Notes under the pieces: generated by a model
The model's input: the letters and a program-made list of their open reading frames with translations, nothing else
Databases searched by the model: none
What the model was told of the DNA's origin: nothing
Assembly: GCA_964435035.1 (NCBI GenBank)
Contig: CAYSXR010000001.1
Span: 212,622-276,621 of the forward strand
Direction of reading: 5' to 3'
Origin: an uncultured Gammaproteobacteria bacterium
Lineage (GTDB): Bacteria > Patescibacteriota > Patescibacteriia > Magasanikbacterales > UBA922
Length of the DNA: 64,000 nucleotides
Shown here: piece by piece, positions 14,433 to 64,000 of the stretch
How the letters are laid out: each line of letters opens with the position of its first letter
Numbering within the stretch: the first letter of the stretch is position 1
Translations under genes and position numbers: made by a program

Positions 14433-15047
14433 TTACTTCAGTCCGATTTCGATCAGTTGACGCTCGAAGTTCGGGGCATCGGTGAACACCTCGGCTCTGA
14501 TGCCGAAATCACGTGCCGCTTCGACCAGTCGAGGAAGGTCATCGAAGAAGACAGTCTCCTGCGGGAGAACTCCGGCGAGGTCGACGGCTGCCTGGAAGAA
14601 CGCAGGCTCAGGTTTGTAGAGCCGGTACTCGTGGGACAGCAGGTGGTGGTCGAACTTCTGGAGGAGTAGGATCCGGGGGTAGATCCATTCCCAAGCGATA
14701 CCATTCACGTTCGAGAGCAGGAGAAGCTTCACGCGTCCGACGAGTGAGTCGATCAGGGGAAGTACTGCGTCGTGGATCGTGAAGTGACAGGTCCAGAGAT
14801 CGATGAATTCGTCCATGGTGAGAGTGATTCCGTACTCCTTGCAGAATGCTTCGCGGATGGCGTCACCCTCGAGGTCGCCGCGATTCACACCTTGCCAGAA
14901 GGCGCTATCCTTGCTCGTGACGAAGTGTCGAATGCGATCAATCGAGACACCCGTCTTCTCGGCCATTGCTGGGAAGAGCTTGCCCTCATCGTCGTGGAAG
15001 ATGAGTACATTGCCGAGGTCGAAGATTACGGCTTTTGGAGGATTCAT
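14433..15047 (-). CDS. HAD-superfamily hydrolase (subfamily IA-like phosphatase)
   Basis: HAD motif I AVIFDLGNVL, a motif II SN and a motif IV FFDDLPRLVEAARDFG are present. Length is 204 aa and GC is high. Confidence 0.7.
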   Translation of the reverse strand: MNPPKAVIFDLGNVLIFHDDEGKLFPAMAEKTGVSIDRIRHFVTSKDSAFWQGVNRGDLEGDAIREAFCKEYGITLTMDEFIDLWTCHFTIHDAVLPLIDSLVGRVKLLLLSNVNGIAWEWIYPRILLLQKFDHHLLSHEYRLYKPEPAFFQAAVDLAGVLPQETVFFDDLPRLVEAARDFGIRAEVFTDAPNFERQLIEIGLK

Positions 15048-15223
15048 AGGTATCCTTTGGTGAGTTATGGCGTTATATGACCAAACACTTTACTTAAACT
15101 ACCACATAAATAATAGGAGGGTCAAATATTGACGTTTTTGGTAGTTTATGATAAGTTGCTCTATCTTTTCAAACCGCAGTGGGTGGAAGGATAGACAAGT
15201 CTAAGATAAGGAGGAGTACCCCC

Positions 15224-15808
15224 ATGGGTGCAAAGAATCCACTGACCCGTGAAGAATGGCTCATCCTGTGTGAGCAGATGAAGGACGTCGATCTGACGAA
15301 TCTCGGTCGCGAGGGTCGGGCGCTCATCGCGCAGGTCGTGAACGTGGTTCCGGACGACGAGCCCTTCGGCCAGTCGCTCTTCGATGCACTGACCTATGTC
15401 GCGGGCTGTTCGCCGGCTTTCGAAGGCGGACTCGCTCGCAAGAAGGATGGGCGTGTGCAGATCTATCTGCGTCAGCGTTCGATGAACGAGTCGGCCTATC
15501 CGGGCGAGTGGCATCTGCCTGGCACCTTCTTCCGTAAGGGAGAGCAGCCTATCGCGGTCGCGCGTCGGCTCTGCAAGTCCGAGTTCGAGGGGGTCGTGGT
15601 CAAGAGCATCCTGCACCTCGAAGACTTCTTCGTTGACGAGGCTCGCGGGAACATCGAGTCCAAGCTCTACGCGATCGAGGTCGAAGGTGACCCGACCGGG
15701 AAGAGCGGGAAGTGGTTCGACCTCGAGGACGTGCCGTCGCCATTGGTCGATCACCACGCCGAGAAGCTCATCCCACGGCTCCTCAAGTACATGGGCGAGG
15801 TGCGCTAA
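15224..15808 (+). CDS. Nudix-fold protein with degenerate Nudix box (high-GC copy)
   Basis: WHLPGTFFRKGEQPIAVARRLCKSEFEG aligns to the Nudix box (WxFPGGxxExGExxxxAxxRELxEExG), but REL is RRL and EE is SE. It is clearly homologous to the adjacent low-GC ORF at 15927. The start is set at the ATG at 15224, which has a strong AAGGAGG SD, rather than the listed 15179. Confidence 0.5.
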   Translation: MGAKNPLTREEWLILCEQMKDVDLTNLGREGRALIAQVVNVVPDDEPFGQSLFDALTYVAGCSPAFEGGLARKKDGRVQIYLRQRSMNESAYPGEWHLPGTFFRKGEQPIAVARRLCKSEFEGVVVKSILHLEDFFVDEARGNIESKLYAIEVEGDPTGKSGKWFDLEDVPSPLVDHHAEKLIPRLLKYMGEVR

Positions 15809-15889
15809 TACAAAGCGCCTCACACTCACGACAATGTTCCGTCCATCATCTCCTAAAGGGGGTGGTGGACGGGACTCATAAATTAACTA

Positions 15890-52526: not shown

Positions 52527-53561
52527 ATGAAACCTCTAAGTTATTATTTTGACCATGCAATCAAACAAGGAGCCTCAGACCTTCATCTTGTTGCACACGA
52601 AAGACCAGTAATTAGAGTACAGGGAGAGCTTGTGTCTATTGCTGATGTGGTACTCGGAGAAAAAGAGCTTGAAACAGCGGTATTAGCGATTCTTGATTCT
52701 TCAGAAAAGAAACGATTTGATGTAGAACATGATTTGGATTTTGGTTATACCTATAAGCAGGTGCGTTTTCGTATCAATATTCATCGACAGGAAGAATCAA
52801 TGGGACTTTCTGCACGTCTCGTTCCAACAGATATCCCGACAGCAGAAACCTTGCGGTTTGAAGAGCCTGTGTATGAGGCAACGAAATTGATTGATGGATT
52901 AGTTTTGGTGGTTGGTCCTACGGGAAACGGAAAATCAACAACGATTGCTCGAATGGTTGAAGAAATCAATACGTCGCGTAATGCACATATTATCACGATC
53001 GAAGATCCAATTGAATTTGTATTTGAAAGTAAAAAAAGTCTTATCGAGCAGCGAGAATTGGGAGGGGATACGCCATCTTTTGCTTCTGCTTTGAAACATG
53101 TCTTGCGTCAGGATCCTAATATTATTATGGTAGGTGAAATGCGCGATCCAGAAACTATTGCGACAGCACTCACTGCTGCAGAAACAGGGCACGTGGTGTT
53201 TTCCACACTTCACACGTCGAGTGCTGCAGAAGCAATTGAACGTATTGTTGATGTATTTGAAGGACCAAAACAAAAACAGGTATTAATCCAGCTTTCAAGC
53301 GTGCTTCGCTTTGTTATTGCACAACAATTGCTTCCAGGTGTAAATAATGCACGCATTGTGGCGAGAGAAATTTTGGTAAATACTCCTGCTGTTGCTAATT
53401 TGATTCGAGAGAATAATATTGCACAGATGGCAAGTGCAATTCAGACTGGTGCAAAAAATGGAATGATTACTATGGAACAGTCAGTAAAATTGTTGTATAA
53501 AGAAGGGTTAATCAGTGAAGAGACTGCGAGCAATCGTATGGGAAGAGATAGGCGTATTTAA
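52527..53561 (+). CDS. pilT: Type IV pilus retraction ATPase PilT
   Basis: Walker A GPTGNGKST, Walker B/Asp box IIMVGEMRD and the conserved His box TLHT. Length 344 aa. Confidence 0.85.
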   Translation: MKPLSYYFDHAIKQGASDLHLVAHERPVIRVQGELVSIADVVLGEKELETAVLAILDSSEKKRFDVEHDLDFGYTYKQVRFRINIHRQEESMGLSARLVPTDIPTAETLRFEEPVYEATKLIDGLVLVVGPTGNGKSTTIARMVEEINTSRNAHIITIEDPIEFVFESKKSLIEQRELGGDTPSFASALKHVLRQDPNIIMVGEMRDPETIATALTAAETGHVVFSTLHTSSAAEAIERIVDVFEGPKQKQVLIQLSSVLRFVIAQQLLPGVNNARIVAREILVNTPAVANLIRENNIAQMASAIQTGAKNGMITMEQSVKLLYKEGLISEETASNRMGRDRRI

Positions 53562-53575
53562 AAGAATTAACCCAT

Positions 53576-55402
53576 TTGTTAGTTTTTAAAGTTAATCGTA
53601 GCTTCATGCCACGTACTCACCGTGTGCGTCGAGTAGCACGCCATGATGTGCGCTCTCCGCATATCGACAATGAAGATTCAGAAAAATATCGCATACGGAT
53701 AGTTAAGCTTATTTTTTTGTTTTTAACTTCTATCGTGAGTGTGCGGCTTTTCATGATTATGATTATGCAGCATGGATTATATACAGCGCTTGCATCTAAT
53801 TCTCATGAGGTGTTTGCTGAACTTACACCTGAACGTGGACTGCTCTATCTGGAAAATAAAGATGGAAAGTTAACACCTCTTGCACTCAATCGAGATAAAT
53901 TTATTGTTTTTGCAGACACGAGAGGTTACGCTGATCCTAAAACATCGCTAGAGGTGGCAGAGGAGCTCGCATTGTTTTTTGGCTATGAGGATGAGCGAAA
54001 ATTTGAGGTATTAGAGCAGCTTCAAAAACCAAATGATGGATATGAGCAAATAGAAAAAAATATTGATGAAGACTTAAAAGCTCGACTTGAAGAACTAAAA
54101 CTACCTGGAATTCATTTTACTCGTTTTCGGGAACGTTACTACCCCGAAGGAGTACTTGCGGCATCGGTGGTGGGATTTGTAGGAAAAAATGAAAAGGGTG
54201 AGTCTGTGGGGAGATATGGAATTGAAGGGTATTGGGATGAGGTGATAGGAGGTGCCGGAGGAGTACTTGAGGGAATCAGAAGTGCGACAGGGGCATGGAT
54301 TCCGCTTGCAGGTAGGTCTTTTGAACAAGCTGTTGATGGGGCTAATCTGGTACTTACTCTTGATCGAACTGTCCAGTACGAAGTCTGTGAACGTCTGAGA
54401 GAGGCAGTTGCTACATATGGGGCTCAGTCTGGGTCGATCGTTATTATGGATCCAATGACAGGTTCTCTCACTGCCGTGTGTTCGGTACCTGATTTTAATC
54501 CCAATGAGTATGGTAAAGTGGAGAATATTTCAGTGTATAATAATCTTTCAATTTTTGAAGCATATGAGCCTGGATCGGTGTTCAAGCCAATCACTATGGC
54601 AGCAGCATTGGATACGGGAGATGTACAGCCAGATGATTATTTTTATGATTCAGGGAGTGTTGATGCTAATTGTACTAAGCCAATTCAGAATGCGGATAAT
54701 CGAAGTTATAAAGATCAAGATATGTCTGGAATTCTTGAACATTCGATTAATACCGGTGTAGTGTATATTGTAAAAAAAATAGGTAAAGAAGATTTTAGAA
54801 ATTATGTAGAAAAATTTGGATTTGGTACCAAAACAGGGATCGAGCTTGATACTGAGGTGGCAGGGACAATTGCGGCGTTATCAAAAAACAAAGGAGACTC
54901 GATCGACTGCTATACAGCGACCGCCTCATTTGGACAAGGAATCACGGTGACTCCATTGCAAATGGTAACTGCATTTTCAGCGCTTGCAAATGGTGGAAAA
55001 CTAATGAAGCCCTACATTGTGAAGCGTATTGAATATGCAAACGGAAAAGTAGATGAAGTTCATCCTATCGAAGTGAGGCAAGTAATAAATAAACATACTG
55101 CTGATACGGTGGCAGCGATGATGGTACGAGTGGTAGATTTTAGTGAAGGTAAGCGTGGACAAGTGCCGGGGTATTATATCGCAGGTAAAACAGGTACAGC
55201 ACAAATTGCAGGTCCCGGAGGATATAGTGCAGAGACGAATCACTCATTTATTGGATTTGGCCCCGTAGACAATCCTAGGTTTGTAACGTTGATAAGACTG
55301 GAAAAACCACAGCGTTCATACGCAAATATTACGGCTGCACCACTGTTTGCTGAGATCACGAAATTTCTCATGTCCTACTATCATATTCCGCCTGAACGAT
55401 AG
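53576..55402 (+). CDS. Penicillin-binding protein 2 / FtsI-type peptidoglycan transpeptidase
   Basis: N-terminal TM anchor, dimerisation domain, and transpeptidase motifs SVFK (SxxK), SIN (SxN) and KTGTA (KTG). Confidence 0.8.
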   Translation: MLVFKVNRSFMPRTHRVRRVARHDVRSPHIDNEDSEKYRIRIVKLIFLFLTSIVSVRLFMIMIMQHGLYTALASNSHEVFAELTPERGLLYLENKDGKLTPLALNRDKFIVFADTRGYADPKTSLEVAEELALFFGYEDERKFEVLEQLQKPNDGYEQIEKNIDEDLKARLEELKLPGIHFTRFRERYYPEGVLAASVVGFVGKNEKGESVGRYGIEGYWDEVIGGAGGVLEGIRSATGAWIPLAGRSFEQAVDGANLVLTLDRTVQYEVCERLREAVATYGAQSGSIVIMDPMTGSLTAVCSVPDFNPNEYGKVENISVYNNLSIFEAYEPGSVFKPITMAAALDTGDVQPDDYFYDSGSVDANCTKPIQNADNRSYKDQDMSGILEHSINTGVVYIVKKIGKEDFRNYVEKFGFGTKTGIELDTEVAGTIAALSKNKGDSIDCYTATASFGQGITVTPLQMVTAFSALANGGKLMKPYIVKRIEYANGKVDEVHPIEVRQVINKHTADTVAAMMVRVVDFSEGKRGQVPGYYIAGKTGTAQIAGPGGYSAETNHSFIGFGPVDNPRFVTLIRLEKPQRSYANITAAPLFAEITKFLMSYYHIPPER

Positions 55403-55523: not shown

Positions 55524-55570
55524 AATTTGTATTATTGCTTTTTTGTTCCTTGTCACTTGTTAGTTAATAT

Positions 55571-55643
55571 GGCCCGTTCGTCTAGTGGCTAGGACGCTAG
55601 GTTCTCATCCTAGTAACAGGGGTCCGATTCCCCTACGGGCTAC
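55571..55643 (+). tRNA. tRNA-Glu (anticodon CUC)
   Basis: Hand-folded cloverleaf. Acceptor stem GGCCCGT/ACGGGCT, D-arm GTCT/GGAC, anticodon stem CTAGG/CCTAG with loop TTCTCAT (anticodon CTC), T-arm AGGGG-TCCGATT-CCCCT, discriminator A. A 3' CCA is not encoded (the sequence reads CCCA). Confidence 0.75.
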
Positions 55644-57120
55644 CCAAGGGGAAATTTTCTCGCGACAGCACGATGCTGAACCACTTTTTCGGCTCGGTTG
55701 ACACGAGTTTCCCGATTGCAGAAATGTCCGAATATAGGGATTTGAGGAGTGTCCGACGCTTCTCTTTTTCGTATTTCGGGTACTGATCAGCCAATAGATC
55801 AAAGACCTTCACGATTCGCGCACGGGTCGGCGTCTGCGACGCGATGTCATCGGTCTGAAGTTGTTGCTCGAGCTTTCTCGTTCCGAGCATCAGCTCGGTC
55901 TTCATCTTCGTGTAGAGCTGTTCCTCAATGATGCCGCCGATGAATGACCGAGTGAGGCGCTCCAGCGCCTCGTTCTTCTCGTTGAGTTCAAGGCGGGCAC
56001 GGGCGCGACCGCGCTCAACGTCGCGCTCTTCATCGCCGTACATGCGTTCGACGACATCGAGCACGAGGTCGCGCTCCTCCGACGAGAGGATCATGCGCTT
56101 GAGGTCGCGTTCAATCACCGCGTCGAGCAGCTCTTCGCGGATGCAGACGGTCGGGTGCCCTCGTGTGTGACAGCGGTAGTAGACGACCTTTCGCTTGTGC
56201 TCGCCGATGAGGAAGCGCTTGCAGTGACCGCATCGAGACATCCGCTGGTACAGGTACTTTGGCTCCGCGATGAAGAGGTGCGGGTGTTTCCGCCGTTGAC
56301 GGATTTGCCTGACGACCTCGAAGATCCCGGCCGGTACGATCGCCTCGTGTTGGCCGGCGAAGAGCTCACCGCGGTAGGGGATGAAGCCTGCGTAGAACGG
56401 GTTGTCGAGCATCTTCGCGATCCTCGACCGGGTTTTGAACGCGCCGCCCTTGCTCTTCAACCCAAGCTCGCGGCCGACCTCGGTCAGCTGGTCGAGGGTA
56501 TAGGCACCGGTCGCGTAGCGCTCGAAGAGCTCCAGGATGCTCGGGGCGCGCTCCGGGTCCGGGATCTTCCTGCCGCGTTCGCCCTTCGGCGTTTCTGGCG
56601 GCGGGTTCAAGTACCCGAAGGGGGCGTTTCTCGGCCAGTATCCTTGTCTCATCCGTCCGAGGTTGCCCTTCAGGATCTCGCTCCTGAGGTTCCGGATGAA
56701 GTGAACCGCAACCGCGGCGAGCATGTCCATGGTGAGACGGCCGCCCGAGTCGGCACTGTCGAGACCTTCGGACGCGAAGGCGATGTAGTGCCCGGCGTCC
56801 ATGAGTTCCGAGATCGTCACCCAATCCCGGAGGTTCCGACTCGACCGGTCAACTTTGTGGAACACGACGCCGTCGGCGTCGCCCTTACCGAGTCGCTTCA
56901 CGAGGTCGACGAAACCCGTTCGACCTGCCTTGGCTGCGGACTCGACGTCTTCGATGACGTCTTTGACGACAAGGCCACGACGGGCGCAGAACTCCTGGAT
57001 GATGCGGCGCTGCTCAAAGAGCGAGGCGCCATGCACCTGGTCGTCGGAGGAAACCCGGACGTAGCAGAACACGGTTGAGGGCGCTGCACGACGGGTGCCA
57101 AATGTTGAAAAATGTGGCAT
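55633..57120 (-). CDS. Large serine recombinase (resolvase-type catalytic domain plus recombinase domain, zinc ribbon and coiled coil)
   Basis: Catalytic domain VFCYVRVSSDDQ (Ser nucleophile) ... VFHKVDRSSRNLRDW. Recombinase domain GYWPRNAPFGY. Zinc ribbon CGHCKRF...YYRCHTRGHPTVC. The start is set at the ATG (MPHFSTF) at 57120, giving about 495 aa. Confidence 0.8.
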   Translation of the reverse strand: MPHFSTFGTRRAAPSTVFCYVRVSSDDQVHGASLFEQRRIIQEFCARRGLVVKDVIEDVESAAKAGRTGFVDLVKRLGKGDADGVVFHKVDRSSRNLRDWVTISELMDAGHYIAFASEGLDSADSGGRLTMDMLAAVAVHFIRNLRSEILKGNLGRMRQGYWPRNAPFGYLNPPPETPKGERGRKIPDPERAPSILELFERYATGAYTLDQLTEVGRELGLKSKGGAFKTRSRIAKMLDNPFYAGFIPYRGELFAGQHEAIVPAGIFEVVRQIRQRRKHPHLFIAEPKYLYQRMSRCGHCKRFLIGEHKRKVVYYRCHTRGHPTVCIREELLDAVIERDLKRMILSSEERDLVLDVVERMYGDEERDVERGRARARLELNEKNEALERLTRSFIGGIIEEQLYTKMKTELMLGTRKLEQQLQTDDIASQTPTRARIVKVFDLLADQYPKYEKEKRRTLLKSLYSDISAIGKLVSTEPKKWFSIVLSRENFPLGSP

Positions 57121-57331
57121 AATATCTGAATTACAGAATGACAGAGGGTCCTTCGAGCTTATCGTGTCCGCTCGATTCGTAACACCGGCACAAGCGCCCC
57201 CCTCGTTCGCGAGTTGCGGTGTTTTTTTGTTTGAGATATCCACATGCTGTGCGCTCGGGCGAGAAACTTGACCCGGGCATTTGTGCCCCTGACAGTATCG
57301 CGCCCTCTTGCAGTACGATTTCCACACGCCT

Positions 57332-57544
57332 ATGCGACATCTCCAATTTGACGACGAGCAACTCGCCAAGAAACTTGCAGCCGCCTATCCGACACTTTCG
57401 GCGGATGAACGGACCGCAGTCTTGGTCGAGCTCATGCTCTTCGTGCGCGCACTCGCCGGCCTGGTCGAGCGGGATACCTCCCGCGGTCCGGGCGAGGACG
57501 CCGAATTCCCTTCCAAGTCGGAGCCTGCCGCACCCGGCACTTAA
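57332..57544 (+). CDS. Small hypothetical protein (70 aa), divergent from the recombinase; speculative recombination directionality factor
   Basis: MRHLQFDDEQLAKKLAAAYPTLSADERTAVLVELMLFVRALAGLVE has a protein-like amphipathic composition, unlike the surrounding Arg-rich frames. No family was assigned. Confidence 0.2.
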   Translation: MRHLQFDDEQLAKKLAAAYPTLSADERTAVLVELMLFVRALAGLVERDTSRGPGEDAEFPSKSEPAAPGT

Positions 57545-58593
57545 GTCACGTAAACATTGCATGTGCATCGTCTATGAGGTCTCGCCGGGGCGGCCGCGTA
57601 CCACGCGGCCGAAGGATTCCATATCCAAATCAGTGGCGTGTCATCCGCCGTCTTCGAGGGTTCACGCAACGCGATGTTGCGCGGTTCCTTGGTCATCTCG
57701 ACACGTGTCAGTGAGGGTCAGGAAGCGCTGTAGGACGGCGAGTAGCGCGTAACGCCGAGTTTGTGGCCGGCGAGTTGAGACAGGCGTAGCCGGGAGGTCT
57801 CGAAGTCGGGGAGCTGGCGCGCTAACGCCGGCCCCCCTGGACGGGGCGACTACAGTCGTCGCCTCGTCCACGCGGAGGATGCCGCAAGCCGCGCAGGACG
57901 GCCAGGGCTTCGAGACGGAGGCCGCTGGACACCGCCCGTCGCTACTCCTGCCGCGCCTGCGGAAGACACGTCACGATCTGCCCGCGCTGCGATCGGGGCA
58001 ACATCTACTGCCTCGGCTGCGCCCCGAAGCGCCGGACGGAGAGGCTGCGGCGCGCTCGGAGGACGTATCGCCGCACGCCCGAAGGTCGTCGCGAACATCG
58101 TGACGCCGAGCGGCGCAGGCGCAGGCGAAAGGCGGCTCCGCACGCAATCGTGGGGGATCTGGGTTCCGCGGTCGCGTCGTCGGTCGCAGGCTCGGACCTG
58201 CCCTCGACCTCCAACCCGGTCGAGGCAGAGGTGACCGATGTATCGATGGAAGATCGCCGTGGAACCGACGGCCACGAACACGAAGCTGCTGATGACGGAC
58301 CCGGACGGCAACGAGCTCCTCAAGGCGGCGCTGCCGTCGACGGCCAACCACCCACGCGCTCTCTTGACCCTGCTCGAGGGCCTGGCGCTGTGGGCCGGCC
58401 AGCCTCTCACCGCTGCGATCTCTGCGGGGCCGTCGTTGCCGAGGCACGTCGACTCGGCCCTCTTCGGAGCGGATCTCTTTCCGTGCGACAGCGTGCTCGT
58501 GCACTACGAAGTGGTCGAGGGCCGCCGACGTCGCCGGACTCTGCGCGGCGTGGGTGACTTCCGGCAGCTGCGCCTCGTGCAGCGGAGGTGGGC

Positions 58594-60093
58594 ATGATCT
58601 CCGACGAGCTGAAATCGAAGATCCGCCGCCTCTACCATGCCGAGCAGTGGCCGATCGGCACGATCGCGAGGGAGCTCACCCTGCACCACAGCACGGTGCG
58701 GCGCGCGCTGCTCGGCGATGGGGTGCCGCTCGCGTCGCTGCCGACGCGCAAGTCGAAACTCGATCCGTACCTGCCGTTCGTCATCGACGTGCTGGACAAG
58801 TACCCGGAGGTCACGGCGAGCCGGGTCTACGACATGGTGCGGGAGCGCGGCTACACGGGCGCGCGCGACCACTTCCGCGCGCTGGTCGCTCGCCACCGCA
58901 AGCCCAAGGCGGCCGAGGCTTTCCTGCGCCTGTCGACCGTTCGGGGCGAAGAGGCCCAGGTCGACTGGGGCCACTTCGGCCACATCATGATCGGCGGCGC
59001 GCGCCGGCCGCTCGTGGCGTTCGTGATGGTGCTGTCGTGGTCGCGCTGGGCGTGGCTGCGCTTCGGCGCGGACATGCGCATGGGCAGCTTCCTCGAGCAC
59101 CACGAGGCGGCATTTCGGGCCTGGGGCGGCGTGCCGCGCGTGATCCTCTACGACAACCTGAAGTCGGCGGTGACCCAGCGCATCGGCGACGCGATCGTGT
59201 TCAACGCGGACCTGTCGGCGTTCGCGAGCCACTACGGCTATGACGCGCGCCCGGTCGCGCCCTATCGCGGCAACGAGAAGGGGCGGGTGGAGCGGACCAT
59301 TCGTGATGTGCGCACCTCGTTCTTCGCTGCGCGCACCTGGGCCGATCTCGCAGACCTGAACGCGCAGGCCGAGCGATGGTGTCGTGAGGTGCGTGGGCTC
59401 CGCACGCATCCCGACGACCGCACGCTCACGGTGGGTGCCGCGTTCGCCGAGGAGCGGGAGGTGCTTCGCGCGCTCCCCGCCGACGTGTTCCCGGTCGCCG
59501 ACCGCGTCGAGGTGAAGGCCGGCAAGACGCCGTACGTGCGCTTCGACGGCAACGACTACAGCGTCCCGCACGATCGTGTTCGGCGGTCGCTGACCGTCAT
59601 GGCGACGAGCGACACGGTGCGCGTCATGGATGGCCAGGACGTCATCGCCATGCACACGCGCTCGTGGGACAAAGGCGCGCAGATCGAGGACGCAGCGCAC
59701 ATCGCGGCTCTCGTCGAGCGCAAGCGCGAGGCCCGCAACGCGCGTGGGCTCAATCGTGTGTTCGTGGCGGTGCCGGTCGCTCAGGAGTTCGTGCGGCGGC
59801 TCGCCGAGCGCGGCGGCAACATCGGCAATGCCGTCGTTCGCCTGGGGGAGATCCTCGACGCCTTCGGTGCCGAGGAGCTCGCGATGTCCGTCGATGAAGC
59901 GATCGCGATGGACGCGCCGCACATCGCGGCGGTTCGTCAGATCCTCGACCGGCGTCGGCGGGACGTGGGGCTCCCGGCGCCGATCGCCGTGGCCCTGCCC
60001 GATGACCCGCGCATTCGAAACATGGTCGTGCGGCGGCCCTCGCTCGAAGCCTACGATGCGCTGAAGGAACCCACGGAGGACTGTCATGAGTGA
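58594..60093 (+). CDS. istA: IS21-family transposase IstA
   Basis: N-terminal HTH (IGTIARELTLHHSTVRRAL). Integrase-core DDE region (AQVDWGHF...LSWSRWAWLRF...VILYDNLKSAV...YRGNEKGRVER). About 500 aa. Confidence 0.85.
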   Translation: MISDELKSKIRRLYHAEQWPIGTIARELTLHHSTVRRALLGDGVPLASLPTRKSKLDPYLPFVIDVLDKYPEVTASRVYDMVRERGYTGARDHFRALVARHRKPKAAEAFLRLSTVRGEEAQVDWGHFGHIMIGGARRPLVAFVMVLSWSRWAWLRFGADMRMGSFLEHHEAAFRAWGGVPRVILYDNLKSAVTQRIGDAIVFNADLSAFASHYGYDARPVAPYRGNEKGRVERTIRDVRTSFFAARTWADLADLNAQAERWCREVRGLRTHPDDRTLTVGAAFAEEREVLRALPADVFPVADRVEVKAGKTPYVRFDGNDYSVPHDRVRRSLTVMATSDTVRVMDGQDVIAMHTRSWDKGAQIEDAAHIAALVERKREARNARGLNRVFVAVPVAQEFVRRLAERGGNIGNAVVRLGEILDAFGAEELAMSVDEAIAMDAPHIAAVRQILDRRRRDVGLPAPIAVALPDDPRIRNMVVRRPSLEAYDALKEPTEDCHE

Positions 60094-60829
60094 CGAACTC
60101 GAGCGGCGTCTCCGCGCCATAGGCCTCATCGGGCTGGCTGCGAGATGTGACGAAATCTGCAACGAGCCGTGGCTCGAGCGAGTGATCGCCATCGAGACCG
60201 AAGAGCGTCGACGTCGCGGCCTCGATAGCCGCCTCAAGAGCAGCAAGCTCGGACGCTTCAAACCGATGGCCGACTACGACTGGAGCTGGCCGCGCGCCAT
60301 CGATCGTCAGGCCATCGACGAGCTGTTCACGCTGCGCTTCCACGCCGAGGGAGCCAACATCATCCTCGTCGGGCCCAGCGGGGTCGGCAAGACGATGATC
60401 GCCAAGAACCTCGCACATGCCGTCATTCGTGCAGGCAGAACCGCGCGCTTCACGACCGCGAGTGCGATGCTCAACGAGCTCGCCGGCCAAGACAGCCTGA
60501 CGGCGCTATCCCGCGCGTATCGACGCTACACGAGCCCCGCGGCCCTGGTCATCGACGAGCTCGGGTACATCGCCTACGGCAACCGCCATGCAGACGTCCT
60601 CTACGAAGTCGTCGACCGCAGGCACGAGCTCGCGCGCAGCGTCATCGTGACCACCAATCGAGCCTTCAAAGAGTGGGGCGACCTCTTCCCGAACGCCACT
60701 TGCGTCGTACCGCTCGTCGACCGTCTCGTCCACAAGAGCGACATCATCGAGATCGACGGCGACTCTTACCGCCTGAAAGAAGCCCAGGCACGAGCCCGTA
60801 GCCGCAAGGCCGGTCCGACCACGGCGTGA
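60086..60829 (+). CDS. istB: IS21-family helper ATPase IstB
   Basis: Walker A GPSGVGKTM, Walker B LVIDELGY and the sensor VVTTNRAFKEWGDLF. It overlaps the istA stop (ATGA-type coupling). Confidence 0.85.
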   Translation: MSDELERRLRAIGLIGLAARCDEICNEPWLERVIAIETEERRRRGLDSRLKSSKLGRFKPMADYDWSWPRAIDRQAIDELFTLRFHAEGANIILVGPSGVGKTMIAKNLAHAVIRAGRTARFTTASAMLNELAGQDSLTALSRAYRRYTSPAALVIDELGYIAYGNRHADVLYEVVDRRHELARSVIVTTNRAFKEWGDLFPNATCVVPLVDRLVHKSDIIEIDGDSYRLKEAQARARSRKAGPTTA

Positions 60830-61080
60830 GCAACGGGACTGCAGCTCGCCGCCGTCAACAGCGGCGTCGAGCGCTACTCGCCGTTTTCACGCGCTCTTCG
60901 ACCACCGCCTACAACACGGACTCGTACTACGACATCGAGCGGGGAACGCGGTTCCCGCGAGCCCGCAACCTCATGTTGCTGCTCCGACTGTTCGGGGTCA
61001 CGCTCGAGCAGGTCTATCCTGACCTTGCTTGGGGAGCGGATCGCGACATCGACGCGCTCCGACATCGCCTTACCCGATGA
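60826..61080 (+). pseudogene. Possible truncated XRE-type HTH gene fragment immediately downstream of IS21
   Basis: YDIERGTRFPRARNLMLLLRLFGVTLEQVY resembles the third helix and C-terminal part of an XRE HTH. The N-terminal part is not HTH-like. Confidence 0.2.
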
Positions 61081-61319
61081 CACGTACCCTCAACCCTATG
61101 AAACGAAACCCTACGGGTCGCCTGAAGCACGAGCTGCTGCACTCCATCCTCCGCGATGAGCGCTGGCATTCGACCAGTGAACTTGTCCGCCGCGTCGGCC
61201 ACACCTTCGCCGGCGCCAAGTGGAAGCTCACTGGTTACGGCTACTCGATCGAGAAGCGACGTCACCCGACGAAGCCGCGCCAGTGGCAGTACCGCCTCAC
61301 CGATCAGGCGGCGGGCTAG
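61077..61319 (+). CDS. Small basic hypothetical protein (80 aa), possible winged-helix DNA-binding protein
   Basis: MTRTLNPMKRNPTGRLKHELLHSILRDERWHSTSELVRRVGHTF... No family assigned. Confidence 0.2.
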   Translation: MTRTLNPMKRNPTGRLKHELLHSILRDERWHSTSELVRRVGHTFAGAKWKLTGYGYSIEKRRHPTKPRQWQYRLTDQAAG

Positions 61320-61922
61320 CGCTCGCCGGCGTCGACGGTGAAATGCGCGGCGCACTCCCAAGTTCCTTCACCGTTCGACTTCACCGCCTCGACCCGGTTC
61401 GCTCTATCCAGCGAACCCCTGCCCCACCCGACGGGCGACAACAATGGCTACAACAACGGGTTAAATGAGCGCGCCCGTCGGGGGCCGTGCCCCCGACTAC
61501 TCGTCGCCACTGCACAACACCTAACCGACCCTGACCAGGCAGAGTCGAGGTGATGGCGCGCGCCGAGTAGTCGGGCGCCCCGTGCCGGGTCACCCCGACG
61601 GGACGCGCGCGGGCTACCCCGACGCTATCGCGATCGGGAACCCGCAACTCCGAACGTCGAACGCGTTGAGCTGACCATCCTGCTGTCACCCTTCATCGCC
61701 TGACATCACCGACCGCCACGACACCTACCGGGTCGGGCCGCGGAACGGCTACCTCGGACTCACGCGTGCGAGGAGGGGAAACGAGGCGAAGACAGCCGAC
61801 ATCGCGGAACATCGCGGCGCGCGTTCTGATGACCATCGTCACCGTGAACGCACGTCGCCAACTCGATGATGGTCATCGCCGACCACGCTCGAGCTTTGTC
61901 AACCGCGCAACGACCCCTACTC

Positions 61923-62801
61923 ATGATCATCCAATCCCGCGACACCCAAATCCTCCGCTCGATCTTCCGGCATCGGTTCCTCACCACCGAGCATCTCCAC
62001 GCACTTCATTTTGTGGACCGCTCTGTTCGGGCGGCGCAGGCCCGCTTGAAGGAGCTCCATGACGACAACTACCTCGACCGGACCTACGTCCTGCCGCCCG
62101 TTGACGGTCTCCGGAGGCGAGTGCGGCCCGTCTACTCAATGGCACGCGCCGGCGCCGAGGTTCTCGCAGCCGTGCTTGGCATTCCGCCCCGTGCGATTCC
62201 GCACACCAAGAAGGCGACGCAGGTCGGCTACCATCACATGTTGCACGAGCTCGTGGTCGCCGACCTGCTCGTCTCCGGTGAGGCGTCACTCGGTCGCGCG
62301 CCAGACGTTCGCTCGGTCGCGACGCTCCGCGATCATGACCTTCGGTCACTGCTGGCCGTCGCGCGCTTACATCAGCATGCTGCCACCGGCGTTGTTCCAG
62401 ACGGTGCGTTCATCGTCGACGCGGTGGGCTTGCCTGCCCCGACCACCATCTACGTCGAGGTCGTGCACGCTGGCGTCAAAGGCGGGAACGCGCGCCTGGT
62501 CGAGAAGCTCGAGCGCTATCTGCAGCTCCTCCGCACGGGGTTCTTCACCTCGGTTTTCAACCACCGGCGTGTCCGCGCGCTCGCGGTCGTCTCGCCATCG
62601 GACGAACGAGTCGAGAACCTCCGCGTGCTCGCAGAGCGCAGACTCCGTCACGGTCGAAGGTTCGTGTGGTTCGCGGTAGCGCCCAGACATTCAGCGCGCA
62701 CATACCCGCCCACGACCTTCACCGTCGAGAGTCTCGCCCAAACCGAGTTCGTCGACATCGAGGGCACACGCCATCACCTCGACGTCAACGCACTTCGCTA
62801 A
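61923..62801 (+). CDS. Replication-relaxation (Replic_Relax) family protein
   Basis: The N-terminal winged helix QILRSIFRHRFLTTEHLHALHF...RAAQARLKELHDDNYLDR matches the Replic_Relax signature. C-terminal PDGAFIVDAVGL...YVEVVHAG is present. ATG at 61923. Confidence 0.55.
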   Translation: MIIQSRDTQILRSIFRHRFLTTEHLHALHFVDRSVRAAQARLKELHDDNYLDRTYVLPPVDGLRRRVRPVYSMARAGAEVLAAVLGIPPRAIPHTKKATQVGYHHMLHELVVADLLVSGEASLGRAPDVRSVATLRDHDLRSLLAVARLHQHAATGVVPDGAFIVDAVGLPAPTTIYVEVVHAGVKGGNARLVEKLERYLQLLRTGFFTSVFNHRRVRALAVVSPSDERVENLRVLAERRLRHGRRFVWFAVAPRHSARTYPPTTFTVESLAQTEFVDIEGTRHHLDVNALR

Positions 62802-62821
62802 TTAGTCATAATCTCTATCGA

Positions 62822-64000
62822 ATGTATGCCCATCACCGTCAACATCCAAATCAGCGATCATCGAGAAGACAAGCTCCACGTTCGGCCAGCTTGGCCGCCT
62901 ACGACGCTTCCGGTCGCGCCCTTATCATTCTCGGCGAGGCCCTCTACCGGCGGACCGCGACGCGCTTTGGGTTACTCCCCGAGGACCGACTGCGCCATGC
63001 CTGGATCGTTGGGAAAACCGGGACCGGGAAGTCGACCCTGGTTCGCTCGATGGTGGCGCAAGACCTTCAAAGCGACGTGGGGCTTGCGATTATTGACCCC
63101 CACGGGTCGCTCGCTGCCGAGGTCGACGAGCTCGCGACGGCGTCCAGGCGTGAACGCATCATCCGCATCTCACCTGGCATCGCGGAGAAGACACCACCCT
63201 TCAACGTGTTCCGACGAGGCACGCAACCTGTGACCGAGTCTGGGCTTCTCGCCTCAGAGCTGATCTCGGTGTTCAAGCACCGGTGGGCCGACTCGTGGGG
63301 CCCGCGCCTCGAACACTACCTCAGGTTCGGTATCCTCGCAGTCGCCGCGCATCCGCGCGCAAGCCTGGGTATGCTTCATCGCTTCTATCTCGACGACGAC
63401 GTTCGAGCTCGCGTCGTCGACCACGTCCGTGACCCGTACGTGCGGGACGTCTGGACCCGCGAGTTTGCCGCCCTTCCACCGCGTCTCCGAGCCGAAGCCC
63501 TTGCCCCGATCATGAACAAACTTGGCAGCTTGGTTGCGCATCCGATTGCCGGACCGATGCTCCGCGGAGAACGTTCACGGCTCGATTTCGACCACTACCT
63601 TGAGAAGCGGGTCGTCCTCATCGTCGACCTCGCCGTCGGCCGTCTCGGCGAGGACATGGCGGCGATGATCGGTTCCCTCATACTGTCGTCTCTCTACCTC
63701 GCCTCCATGCGCCGCGGCAGAAGCTCGCCACCGTTCTTCTGTTACCTCGACGAGTTCCAGCACTTTGTGTCGGGCTCGATCCCGACGGTCCTCTCTGAAT
63801 CCCGCAAGTACGGCTTTGGTCTGGTGCTTTCGCACCAGTACCTGGGGCAGCTCGGAGAAAGTATCCGCGAGGCCGTGCTCGGGAACGTCGGAAGCCGAAT
63901 GTACTTCAGGGTGGGAGCCGAGGATGCCCGTGTGCTCGGGCCAACTGTTGAGCCAATCTACACGGCCGCCGACCTCATGACGCTTCCCGCGTACCACGCG
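62822..64000 (+). CDS. TraD/TraG/VirD4-like type IV coupling ATPase, 3' partial
   Basis: The ATG-62822 frame was translated by hand and is open to the window end. Walker A IVGKTGTGKST, Walker B-like VVLIVDLA...CYLDEFQHF and the TraG-D_C-like LVLSHQYLGQL...NVGSRMYFRVGAEDARVLG are present. It is absent from the supplied ORF track because it has no in-window stop. Confidence 0.6.
   Translation, partial: MYAHHRQHPNQRSSRRQAPRSASLAAYDASGRALIILGEALYRRTATRFGLLPEDRLRHAWIVGKTGTGKSTLVRSMVAQDLQSDVGLAIIDPHGSLAAEVDELATASRRERIIRISPGIAEKTPPFNVFRRGTQPVTESGLLASELISVFKHRWADSWGPRLEHYLRFGILAVAAHPRASLGMLHRFYLDDDVRARVVDHVRDPYVRDVWTREFAALPPRLRAEALAPIMNKLGSLVAHPIAGPMLRGERSRLDFDHYLEKRVVLIVDLAVGRLGEDMAAMIGSLILSSLYLASMRRGRSSPPFFCYLDEFQHFVSGSIPTVLSESRKYGFGLVLSHQYLGQLGESIREAVLGNVGSRMYFRVGAEDARVLGPTVEPIYTAADLMTLPAYHA

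Follow-up and report, generated by a model that had tools for sequence, protein, structure and literature searches.

Gene content of the tRNA-Glu locus

The window, that is, the whole 64,000-nt stretch of DNA analysed here, carries a host tRNA-Glu(CUC) gene, for which ARAGORN gives an extent of 55570-55646 (Table 1). The host has a small genome of the Magasanikbacteria type (candidate phyla) with 39.0% GC, and its genes for a PilT protein and a PBP2-type transpeptidase serve as synteny anchors. The tRNA has a G1.U72 pair; its discriminator, A, is at position 55642, and the next two bases (55643-55644) are CC. According to the composition profile, the GC content switches from 39.0% to 64.6% exactly at the tRNA-Glu end, a jump that is the most striking feature of the locus and went unremarked in the initial annotation.

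The sole long ORF adjoining the tRNA-Glu gene encodes a large serine recombinase (LSR). The protein begins MPHFST and has the features of the LSR (serine integrase) class, including a resolvase-type catalytic domain (PF00239, Resolvase; 9.4e-23, 81.4 bits against a cutoff of 23.3), a Recombinase domain (PF07508; 6.3e-08, 33.2 bits against a cutoff of 21.1), and zinc-ribbon cysteines (PF13408, Zn_ribbon_recom; 7e-05, 23.6 bits, slightly under the cutoff of 25.3). In the family alignment, the catalytic motif YVRVSSDDQ is nearly invariant, and C297, C300, and C317-H318 are invariant. Matches by sequence to solved structures (PDB 3guv, TP901-1 integrase) cover the catalytic domain only. The gene adjoining the tRNA is a serine recombinase gene, not one for a tyrosine integrase, and no ORF tested in the interval of 55.6-64 kb has a Phage_integrase domain. 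The closest relative of the recombinase is P0001 (69% identical), and its best match in the plasmid database is 35% identical (Sulfitobacter). Scans of metagenome and viral collections with the family alignment returned 10 and 4 loci, respectively, mostly distant relatives.

A GC-rich mobilisable or conjugative-type element occupies the sequence from about 55645 to past 64000. One end of it, 8.4 kb, is visible, and its far junction (attR) lies beyond the window. Its genes run in the order LSR, small ORF, IS21-family insertion, Replic_Relax (replication-relaxation) protein, and TrwB-like coupling ATPase. For the small ORF, a Pfam search gave no match. IstA of the insertion is at most 56% identical to plasmid (proteobacterial) IS21 copies. 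The Pfam matches of the coupling ATPase (DUF87, TrwB_AAD_bind, and TraG-D_C) are all weak. The gene module and its order are common to the relatives L003, L029, and L032, in which the Replic_Relax gene adjoins the recombinase gene. An LSR, a Replic_Relax protein, and a TrwB/TraG-like ATPase form a set of the IME/ICE/AICE type, and no genes for a mating pore (T4SS) or an FtsK/TraB-type translocase were seen in the visible 8.4 kb. The element DNA has no match in the plasmid database, and no donor was found.

Table 1. Features of the window around the tRNA-Glu gene and the adjoining element
Feature	Position	Strand	Basis or remark
Host PilT gene, second synteny anchor	52527-53561
Host PBP2-type transpeptidase gene, synteny anchor	53576-55402	+	Pfam
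Host tRNA-Glu(CUC)	55571-55642	+	Rfam RF00005, 57.6 bits
Predicted attL	55619-55662		Dyad symmetry 9/14 at one centre only
attL B arm (tRNA T-arm 3' side and acceptor 3' strand)	55619-55639
Likeliest crossover dinucleotide CT (tRNA positions 71-72)	55640-55641		Inferred placement
attL P' arm (last recombinase codons R-E-N-F-P-L-G)	55642-55662
Large serine recombinase gene, 495 aa	55633-57120	-	Pfam domains
GC-rich integrated element, 64.6% GC	55645-64000		Composition profile; continues past window end
Small ORF divergent from recombinase (MRHLQFDDEQL...)	57332-57544	+	Same place in L001
IS21-family insertion sequence within element, 68.5% GC	57724-60895	+	Pfam rve, Mu-transpos_C_2, IstB_IS21
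IS21-family inverted repeats, 54 nt, imperfect	57724-57777 and 60842-60895
istA of IS21-family insertion	58588-60093	+
istB of IS21-family insertion	60086-60829	+
Replic_Relax protein gene	61866-62801	+	Pfam PF13814, 3.4e-19
TrwB/VirD4-like coupling ATPase gene, Walker A GKTGTGKS	62822-64000	+	Translation; cut by window end

The junction at the tRNA 3' end

The initial annotation held that the recombinase ORF ends inside the tRNA and that the element junction lies in the tRNA 3' end, formed by an LSR instead of a tyrosine integrase. Both statements are borne out. The stop codon TAG, which reads as CTA at 55633-55635 on the forward strand, falls inside tRNA-Glu with an overlap of 10 nt, and the final recombinase codons, G-S-P-stop, are antisense to the acceptor 3' strand.

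The same arrangement recurs outside the window. At L001, which derives from another MAG, an LSR 69% identical to that of the window shows the same overlap within the same synteny (PilT-PBP-tRNA-Glu-recombinase), and at L042 an LSR at least 90% identical to that of L001 lies in tRNA-Glu(UUC) with a 43% GC flank. At least 13 relatives abut tRNAs in the same register, with eight tRNA species represented, and the register holds across relatives that are 25-69% identical. The ORF runs antisense into tRNA-Leu in L002, tRNA-Ala in L028 and L034, tRNA-Arg in L021, tRNA-Pro in L022 and L024, and tRNA-Gln in L025, and in every tRNA-abutting relative the Gly codon is the reverse complement of the discriminator plus CC. 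With 13 or more independent relatives and eight tRNA species sharing this register, the overlap between ORF and tRNA is not a product of chance; it is a property of a whole little-known recombinase clade, not a one-off oddity. Contigs of relatives repeatedly stop inside the element, which fits population heterogeneity and also assembly trouble.

Empty sites, which the initial annotation had suggested looking for in related genomes, were found in 11 Magasanikbacteria genomes that lack the element, and their tRNA 3' end is the same as that of the window (...ACGGGCTAC). In all 11, tRNA-Glu ends ...CCCCTACGGGCTAC, with G1.U72, a discriminator A, and then C, and most of these genomes do not encode CCA either. 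Among Magasanikbacteria MAGs, 12 carry a tRNA-Glu gene with an identical 3' end. Since the empty sites share this end and most lack an encoded CCA, the 3' end of the window tRNA is native in sequence, with nothing unusual visible in it. The initial annotation had taken the ending ...GGGCTACCCA, not CCA, as a sign that the tRNA end had been rebuilt. This candidate (CCCA in place of CCA) was rejected, as the identical end occurs in 11/11 empty-site genomes. The terminal bases A73, C74, and C75 are probably element-derived. The element would supply its own copies of these three bases, identical to the native ones, and thereby leave the tRNA unchanged. Of the two observations that the initial annotation had set against its own reading, an identical 3' sequence does occur in element-free relatives, and the recombinase stop codon stays inside the tRNA and not outside it. 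With an element abutting the 3' part of an intact tRNA gene, 11 empty sites, and two further occupied sites, the locus agrees in this respect with tRNA-gene genomic islands of the Islander/Williams type, though not in the integrase beside the tRNA, which is a serine and not a tyrosine enzyme.

Empty sites are identical to occupied ones up to and including 55643; beyond this base their match to the window stops, and they continue with unrelated low-GC sequence. The window junction shows a dyad with 9/14 matches against 3.5/14 expected by chance, centred on 55640-55641. The same centre is found in L001 (8/14), L042 (9/14), L028 (11/14), and L034 (9/14), and in these five junctions it lies 2 nt ahead of the discriminator, whereas the 11 empty sites score 3-4/14 and their native B' arm has no symmetry. 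The element arm covaries with the tRNA species (L028, L034), and no dyad peak is present in the more distant relatives L021-L025. Alignment to the tRNA-Glu genes of relatives had been proposed as a way of defining the crossover core; the comparison of occupied with empty sites, taken with the pair P0054/P0126 described below, bounds the crossover to 55639-55644, most likely within the last ~5 nt of tRNA-Glu. The best guess for the crossover itself is the dinucleotide CT, because the dyad is centred on it and because the sequences of P0054 and P0126 part one base away from the equivalent dinucleotide, on its tRNA side.

Given the GC jump at the tRNA end, the shared register of L001 and L042, and the mirrored arms, the window site is a true integration junction (attL), not an assembly chimera. 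However, resident elements very rarely exceed their host by as much as 25 GC points, which speaks against integration. Searches with 14-mers of the tRNA 3' end (at most one mismatch) gave no convincing copy in the window or the retrieved related loci, and nothing convincing was found in the retrieved loci among orphan coding remnants of the motif G-x-P-x-R-x-x-x-R-T, which are predicted at attR. As attR is absent from the window and from the related contigs retrieved, integration rests on one junction.

Long-tailed recombinases and alternative explanations

In recombinases without an adjoining tRNA, the ORF runs on into the motif G-x-P-x-R-x-x-x-R-T and a variable tail (30-80 aa). The motif is strict in 43 of the 126 family proteins examined and loose in a further 21. 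In the DNA of these long forms, the Gly codon stays GGT and that of the last Arg stays CGA, although GGC and CGC are the most frequent codons for these residues in the genes concerned. The DNA thus carries an 8-nt core like that of a tRNA end, e.g., GGTCCACC, which matches the tRNA-Ala 3' end. Their P and P' arms are weakly symmetric, with the GGT and CGA positions common to both, and the outer TCGA lies 6 nt farther from the centre than in the tRNA arm. The tails are poorly conserved in sequence, and in the tree the short-tailed forms are polyphyletic, interleaved among long-tailed ones. Hidden tRNAs were rejected as an explanation of the long tails, as ARAGORN with relaxed thresholds detected no tRNA behind long-tailed ORFs. 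An exact copy of the tRNA 3' half in the P arm was likewise rejected, given the more distant TCGA and the absence of a T-stem.

The relatives P0054 and P0126 are ~99% identical and diverge exactly after ...AGD, from which point P0054 continues with antisense-tRNA coding (PTGIRTP...) and P0126 with a long tail. Alternative 3' parts at the att core are therefore seen in these relatives, and the element of the window is not itself the example. Because copies without a tRNA run into the motif and tail, and because this pair diverges at that codon, the most likely place of attP is within the recombinase ORF, with integration replacing the C-terminal tail. Before recombination, the ORF would continue through attP into G-x-P-x-R-x-x-x-R-T and the variable tail; integration would then swap this tail for antisense-tRNA coding, which in the window would amount to S-P-stop. 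The overlap of ORF and tRNA would arise because the attachment site of the element is located within the recombinase ORF. The tailed form would carry a functional attP, and tail loss may affect recombinase activity. P0126 is chromosomal and lies beside a tyrosine integrase gene. A long tail therefore cannot be taken as the mark of an excised circle, and some insertions might be the work of a second integrase. We are fairly confident in the joint reading of the locus as an LSR-integrated element with attL in tRNA-Glu, attP within the ORF, and a replaced tail.

Three other explanations bear on this reading. An assembly chimera, in which a low-GC Magasanikbacteria contig and a foreign high-GC contig were joined at a tRNA-like k-mer, would accord with the abrupt switch from 39% to 65% GC, with contigs of relatives that stop 0.3-1.5 kb past the recombinase, and with three P0010 contigs that break in the tRNA T-loop; in addition, the window proteins are not in the public protein collection, which leaves no second copy of the exact junction. 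It is nevertheless extremely improbable, as junctions in the same register occur in independent assemblies with diverged elements (L001, 69% aa identity; L042, in another tRNA-Glu), the tRNA is fully of the host type through C74, and the element arm mirrors the arm of the very tRNA it adjoins and changes with that tRNA in L028 and L034, a pattern not expected of a chimera. Very little weight also falls on a real integration performed by another integrase, e.g., a tyrosine integrase encoded past the window, with the LSR as a resolvase or invertase at the edge of the element. The exact codon register between LSR and tRNA end across eight tRNA species and relatives 25-69% identical argues against it, as do the dyad centred in the 8-nt core, as in serine integrase sites, the divergence of P0054 and P0126 inside the recombinase ORF, and the failure to find a repeat of the tRNA 3' segment in the window or the retrieved related loci. 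What speaks for such an enzyme is that the long-tailed relatives L003, L029, L032, and L040 often have a tyrosine integrase within a few kb, that tRNA 3' ends are typical targets of tyrosine integrases, and that the far part of the element lies beyond the window.

The remaining explanation accepts integration by the LSR and places the crossover just past C74/C75, so that no tRNA base is exchanged, the ORF merely reads into the tRNA up to the first stop codon, and the tails are an unrelated difference between lineages. The identity of occupied and empty sites through 55643 would hide any exchange inside the tRNA, attR and attP of the window element lie outside the visible sequence, and the poor conservation of the tails is also compatible with this view. 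However, the dyad centre lies ahead of the discriminator in all five junctions, and the long forms have the tRNA-end-like 8-nt core at the same codons, along with constrained GGT and CGA codons. Moreover, the point at which P0054 and P0126 part is on the tRNA side of the discriminator plus CC, and short tails are polyphyletic. A crossover downstream of the tRNA is thus unlikely, and an exchange within the last bases of tRNA-Glu, at an attP inside the recombinase ORF, is the preferred reading.

Wider reading and comparison with known systems

The usual view assigns protein-coding targets to serine integrases and tRNA genes to tyrosine integrases. The LSR clade described here may use as its attB what tRNA 3' halves universally have in common, namely the T-loop TTCGA and the acceptor end plus ACC. 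The P arm of attP within the recombinase coding sequence may be a stretched mimic of these features, in which case G-x-P-x-R-x-x-x-R-T may for the most part be translated attachment-site sequence. The re-tailing that accompanies each integration might serve as an inherent switch for directionality or 'lock-in'. GC-rich conjugative-type elements may colonise low-GC candidate-phyla bacteria and shuttle to and from high-GC hosts. The reading that joins a tRNA-derived attB, a mimic attP in the ORF, a re-tailing switch, and shuttling between episymbionts and high-GC hosts is tentative, and we consider it possible rather than probable.

A fixed register at tRNA 3' ends across a whole clade would broaden the known range of site recognition by serine integrases, as would an att site inside the enzyme's own ORF, which raises the question of whether tail loss changes integration or excision. 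As tRNA ends are conserved natural landing sites, the enzymes of this clade are of interest as integration tools. The locus also documents a mobile element in candidate-phyla bacteria, whose mobilome is poorly known, and an element 25 GC points above its host bears on gene flow between episymbionts and other bacteria.

Serine recombinases that act on tRNA genes have been described in a few systems. In Mycobacterium AICEs, they integrate into a tRNA-Leu gene, and such cases are described as rare (Ghinet et al. 2011, PMC3218068). As in the window, an LSR puts a conjugative-type element into a tRNA gene. Compared by description with those AICEs, the window differs in pairing a candidate-phyla host of 39% GC with an element of 65% GC and in a transfer module that consists of Replic_Relax and a TrwB-like ATPase, and the available parts of the AICE account make no mention of an attachment site within the ORF or of a tail swap. 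The serine recombinase of phage phiRSM1, as cited in PMC3218068, integrates at the tRNA-Ser 3' end and in this respect resembles the window enzyme. However, as described there, phiRSM is a filamentous phage with a small resolvase-like enzyme, whereas the window encodes a 495-aa LSR with Recombinase and Zn-ribbon regions on a plasmid-like element. Among the Tycheposons of Prochlorococcus, a minority (27 of 937) have a large serine instead of a tyrosine recombinase (bioRxiv 10.1101/2020.12.28.424599). Like the window element, Tycheposons are integrative elements that sit next to tRNA genes and carry replication genes, but, compared by description, they differ from it in host, gene content, and GC relation.

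A recombination site inside a serine integrase gene has been reported for the streptococcal IME_Spy2096_SNF2 (Coluzzi et al. 2017, PMC5357655). The window clade shares this location of the site within the integrase gene. However, IME_Spy2096_SNF2 is a single reported case with a protein-coding target (snf2), whereas in the window clade the arrangement is clade-wide, directed at tRNA targets, and in a fixed register. The SSV-type 'suicidal' tyrosine integrases of archaea also have an att site inside the integrase ORF (Badel et al. 2020, PMC7253208). They resemble the window clade in the in-ORF att site, in an integration that alters the integrase gene, and in tRNA targets. In contrast, the SSV-type enzymes belong to the tyrosine family and are archaeal, whereas the window clade comprises bacterial serine recombinases, and SSV integration splits the gene into two large parts, whereas the window clade exchanges only a tail past the conserved domains.

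The att-site architecture of canonical large serine integrases has been described for the LI/A118, Bxb1, and phiC31 integrases (Rutherford et al. 2013, PMC3783163). The window LSR agrees with these enzymes in domain order and, in its predicted sites, probably also in short dyad symmetry around a 2-bp crossover, although its matches by sequence to solved structures are limited to the catalytic domain. In the canonical sites, as in the window clade, the inner positions are common to attB-type and attP-type arms, and an outer motif, TCGA in the window clade, is placed farther out in the P and P' arms than in the tRNA arm, by 6 nt in the window clade compared with 5 bp in the LI model. However, the window clade departs from the canonical large serine integrases in its tRNA targets instead of protein-coding ones, in an attP located within the recombinase ORF, and in an asymmetric native B' arm.

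A tRNA-Glu gene joined to a GC-rich element

The sole tRNA gene within the window, a tRNA-Glu(CUC), borders a GC-rich element that carries a predicted large serine recombinase (LSR) gene at its edge. At the tRNA end, GC content steps up from 39.0% (1-55570) to 64.6% (55645-64000), a change missed by the initial annotation. The LSR stop codon (TAG) lies opposite CTA at 55633-55635, and the final codons, GGT AGC CCG TAG (G-S-P-stop), lie antisense to ACGGGCTACC. The tRNA and domain searches and the position of the stop agree with the coordinates and the 10-nt overlap first reported, which are correct.

Features of the window on both sides of the junction
Feature	Coordinates	Strand	Side	Basis and remarks
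Two ORFs (HAD-family hydrolase, unknown protein)	14433-15829	minus		patch of 49-52% GC
PilT and PBP2-type transpeptidase			low-GC (host)	Pfam
tRNA-Glu(CUC)	55570-55646			ARAGORN
tRNA-Glu(CUC)	55571-55642			Rfam, 57.6 bits
LSR	55633-57120	minus	high-GC, edge at tRNA end	495 aa from MPHFST; Pfam Resolvase, Recombinase, Zn_ribbon_recom
Small ORF			high-GC	divergent from LSR
IS21-family insertion sequence	57724-60895			Pfam; 54-nt imperfect terminal inverted repeats; 68.5% GC; lies inside the high-GC element
istA	58588-60093			~860 nt of extra sequence ahead of it
istB	60086-60829
Replic_Relax protein (high-GC side)	61866-62801			Pfam
TrwB/VirD4-like ATPase			high-GC	extends past window end

Homology to other tRNA-Glu genes gives an acceptor stem of GGCCCGT/ACGGGCT, in which G1 pairs with U72, and makes the A at 55642 the discriminator, followed by CCCA. 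When species-representative genomes were scanned for exact matches to the first 64 nt of this tRNA, 13 loci were retrieved, six in records labelled Candidatus Magasanikbacteria or Magasanikiibacteriota and seven in binned MAGs labelled "uncultured Gammaproteobacteria", which were taken as mislabelled. Twelve loci come from separate genomes, 11 without the element and one occupied (L015, on the same contig as L001, the locus of the closest related LSR). The tRNA ends ...CCCCTACGGGCTAC in all 11 element-free genomes, and the window tRNA end is therefore native; the argument that "CCCA, not CCA" betrays a rebuilt end fails. Judged from these sequences, the G1.U72 pair, the discriminator A and C74 are family traits of these tRNA-Glu genes, most of which lack an encoded CCA. 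A C directly follows the discriminator at 11/11 empty sites, and full CCA is encoded at only three (among loci L005-L017). Downstream, the empty sites have unrelated low-GC sequence, a terminator hairpin or the next tRNA, and identity between occupied and empty sites stops after 55643.

The junction could in principle be a chimera made by one assembler, but this is strongly argued against by three junctions whose element sequences are homologous yet diverged. The closest protein, P0001 (69% identical to the window LSR), lies on a 92-kb Magasanikiibacteriota contig with the gene order PilT, PBP, tRNA-Glu(CUC), LSR and the same ORF/tRNA overlap as in the window, and with GC climbing from ~42% to ~60%. 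P0121, a second member of its 90% cluster, is inserted at tRNA-Glu(UUC) on L042, with a host flank of 43% GC and an element side of 60% GC. Nearly identical LSRs at two tRNA-Glu genes indicate, at the sequence level, recent activity, and suggest that recognition may rely on the common T-arm (GGTCCGATTCCCC) and the ...G-CT-AC end of both genes.

A mobile element is usually richer in AT than its host. Relatives of this element have 55-65% GC regardless of host, and host GC is 39-50% (Magasanikbacteria, Falkowbacteria and the L042 host flank), an excess that runs against this tendency. The IstA protein shares no more than 56% identity with copies from proteobacterial plasmids. On the host side, the minus-strand ORF pair at 14433-15829 forms a small compositional outlier in otherwise plus-strand surroundings of ~38% GC.

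A common register at tRNA genes

Other relatives adjoin other tRNAs, always convergently, with the ORF running antisense into the tRNA: P0003 (Falkowbacteria, 46% identity to the window LSR) at tRNA-Leu(UAG); P0004 (45%) at tRNA-Ala(UGC), reading through nearly the whole tRNA; P0010 (43%, three samples) at tRNA-Ala; and the recombinases of L021, L022, L024 and L025 (25-31%) at tRNA-Arg, Pro, Pro and Gln, respectively. The C-termini of P0054, P0117 and P0039 are typical antisense T-arm peptides (e.g. GIRTP, WIRT, NRT). In every relative with DNA examined, one Gly codon is the reverse complement of the discriminator plus CC, and the two codons after it are antisense to the acceptor 3' strand; the codon at the Gly position is GGT or GGC, with AGT in L001 and L042 and AGC in L021. 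Because this register is fixed over 25-69% identity and eight tRNA species, it is not due to chance. The overlap first noticed in the window is real and more general than claimed, extending clade-wide, although one argument made for it was wrong.

Of the three P0010 contigs, two from different samples (L033, L035) share one break point, a single base in the tRNA-Ala T-loop, and L034 extends 28 nt beyond it but also ends within the tRNA; these breaks fit either a fork of the assembly graph at the recombination site or close to it, or a T-loop k-mer that recurs. L021 holds tandem recombinase genes, 84-764 (truncated) and 745-2241 (running into tRNA-Arg); inside the second, the stretch 1377-1394 matches the tRNA-Arg 3' end at 16/18 positions, perhaps by chance, perhaps as a relic of a previous event. 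The C-terminus of P0100 (...ACLLYTSRCV) is presumably a translated Nextera sequencing adapter, suggesting adapter contamination at the end of a public contig.

Alternative C-termini and the probable crossover position

Conservation in the recombinase alignment extends through ...EPRKW....RExFxxGxP. Beyond this point, tRNA-adjoining copies stop within a few codons or read through the antisense tRNA (short forms), and copies without a nearby tRNA (L003, L018, L029, L032) continue into x-R-x-x-x-R-T followed by 30-80 aa of variable tail (long forms). The motif G-x-P-x-R-x-x-x-R-[TS] occurs strictly in 43 of the 126 wider-family proteins examined and loosely in a further 21. The two forms are interleaved in the distance tree, short P0004, for instance, being sister to long P0008 at 65% identity. 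Of six distinct long-form sequences, four use GGT for the motif Gly (the others have TGT and AGT) and four use CGA for the last Arg, whereas the commonest Gly and Arg codons of these genes are GGC and CGC.

Read antisense, the long forms give ...TCGA-N18-GGnnCACC, with an 8-nt core resembling a tRNA acceptor end plus CC. The core of L019/L020 and L036 (GGTCCACC) is identical to the tRNA-Ala end of L028 and L034, that of L029 (GGGCTACA) is close to the Magasanikbacteria tRNA-Glu end, and that of L003 and L032 (GGTGCACC) is a perfect palindrome. GGT beside the centre and CGA at positions 19-21 occur in both the P and P' arms; the T-loop CGA of real tRNA arms lies at positions 13-15, 6 nt nearer the centre. 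In some long forms (L003 11440-11510, L029 11430-11500), the putative attP arms hold a direct repeat, CGAGAAAAGTTC ... CGAGAAAAGGTTC, visible at both the DNA and protein level (REKF ... REKV).

The pair P0054 (495 aa) and P0126 (530 aa), from one 90% cluster, offers direct sequence evidence for a swap, with alternative tails on one gene. They differ by two residues through ...KNRKTVTAGD and diverge completely thereafter, P0054 into PTGIRTPIYAVRGRCPSH, which is antisense tRNA, and P0126 into NGRPAMRMPIEH..., a long tail in which CGA falls at the expected codons. P0126 (L040/L041) adjoins a tyrosine integrase in a 5-kb islet of the chromosome, bordered by tRNA-Gly and tRNA-Trp; the long form thus represents the unrecombined state, which need not be a free circle. 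The L040 islet is located upstream of secE-nusG. Long-tailed copies (L003, L029, L032, L040/L041) frequently lie no more than a few kb from a tyrosine integrase, and their elements may carry two integration systems.

When complementarity of 14-nt arms was scored around every possible centre, one register stood out, with the centre dinucleotide beginning 2 nt ahead of the discriminator. Matches number 9/14 in the window, L042 and L034, 8/14 in L001 and 11/14 in L028 (chance mean 3.5/14; binomial tail probabilities 2e-3, 1e-2 and 4e-5 for 9, 8 and 11); the same scoring found no clear peak in L002 or distant relatives. The mirrored words are ATTCCCCTACGGG and TTTCCCCTTGGGT for tRNA-Glu and ACTCCGCCACGGT and ACTCCGCGGCGGT for tRNA-Ala; since they vary with the tRNA, the element arm co-varies with the target. 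Scores at the 11 empty sites are only 3-4/14, so the symmetry is brought by the element.

The occupied and empty sites place the crossover at or before 55643-55644, and the P0054/P0126 divergence, within the G-x-P codons and one base tRNA-side of the predicted centre, places it at or after 55639 when carried over in register. The dyad centre is CT at 55640-55641 (tRNA positions 71-72); with this centre, the discriminator and next CC would be element-derived yet identical to the native bases. The proposal that the junction falls inside the tRNA end is probably right, although no visible trace is left in the tRNA.

Proposed mechanism and known systems

Relatives have empty sites, the clade keeps one register, and the element arms mirror the tRNA arm. 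We propose that the LSR would recombine the tRNA 3' end (attB) with a ~44-bp attP inside its own 3' coding region. Integration would swap the LSR tail while the tRNA stays intact, and the conserved tail motif may be largely a translation of the P arm.

By sequence, the window LSR matches solved structures in the catalytic domain only, and its plasmid relatives are at most 35% identical. Within the literature covered, which is incomplete and leaves absence unproven, we found no LSR clade described as having both tRNA targets and an in-ORF attP, and no account of such elements from candidate-phyla bacteria. Serine-recombinase elements integrating into tRNA genes are described as rare, with phage phiRSM1 at tRNA-Ser and eight Mycobacterium AICEs at tRNA-Leu as precedents (PMC3218068), and an LSR occurs in 27 of 937 Prochlorococcus tycheposons (bioRxiv 10.1101/2020.12.28.424599). 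A recombination site within the serine integrase gene is known from one streptococcal IME (PMC5357655), and SSV-type archaeal tyrosine integrases have an attP in their ORF and are disrupted by integration (PMC7253208). In the LI integrase model, the attB zinc-ribbon motif lies 5 bp nearer the centre than in attP (PMC3783163), to which the 6-nt shift of CGA in the tRNA arm of this clade is a suggestive, though not exact, parallel.
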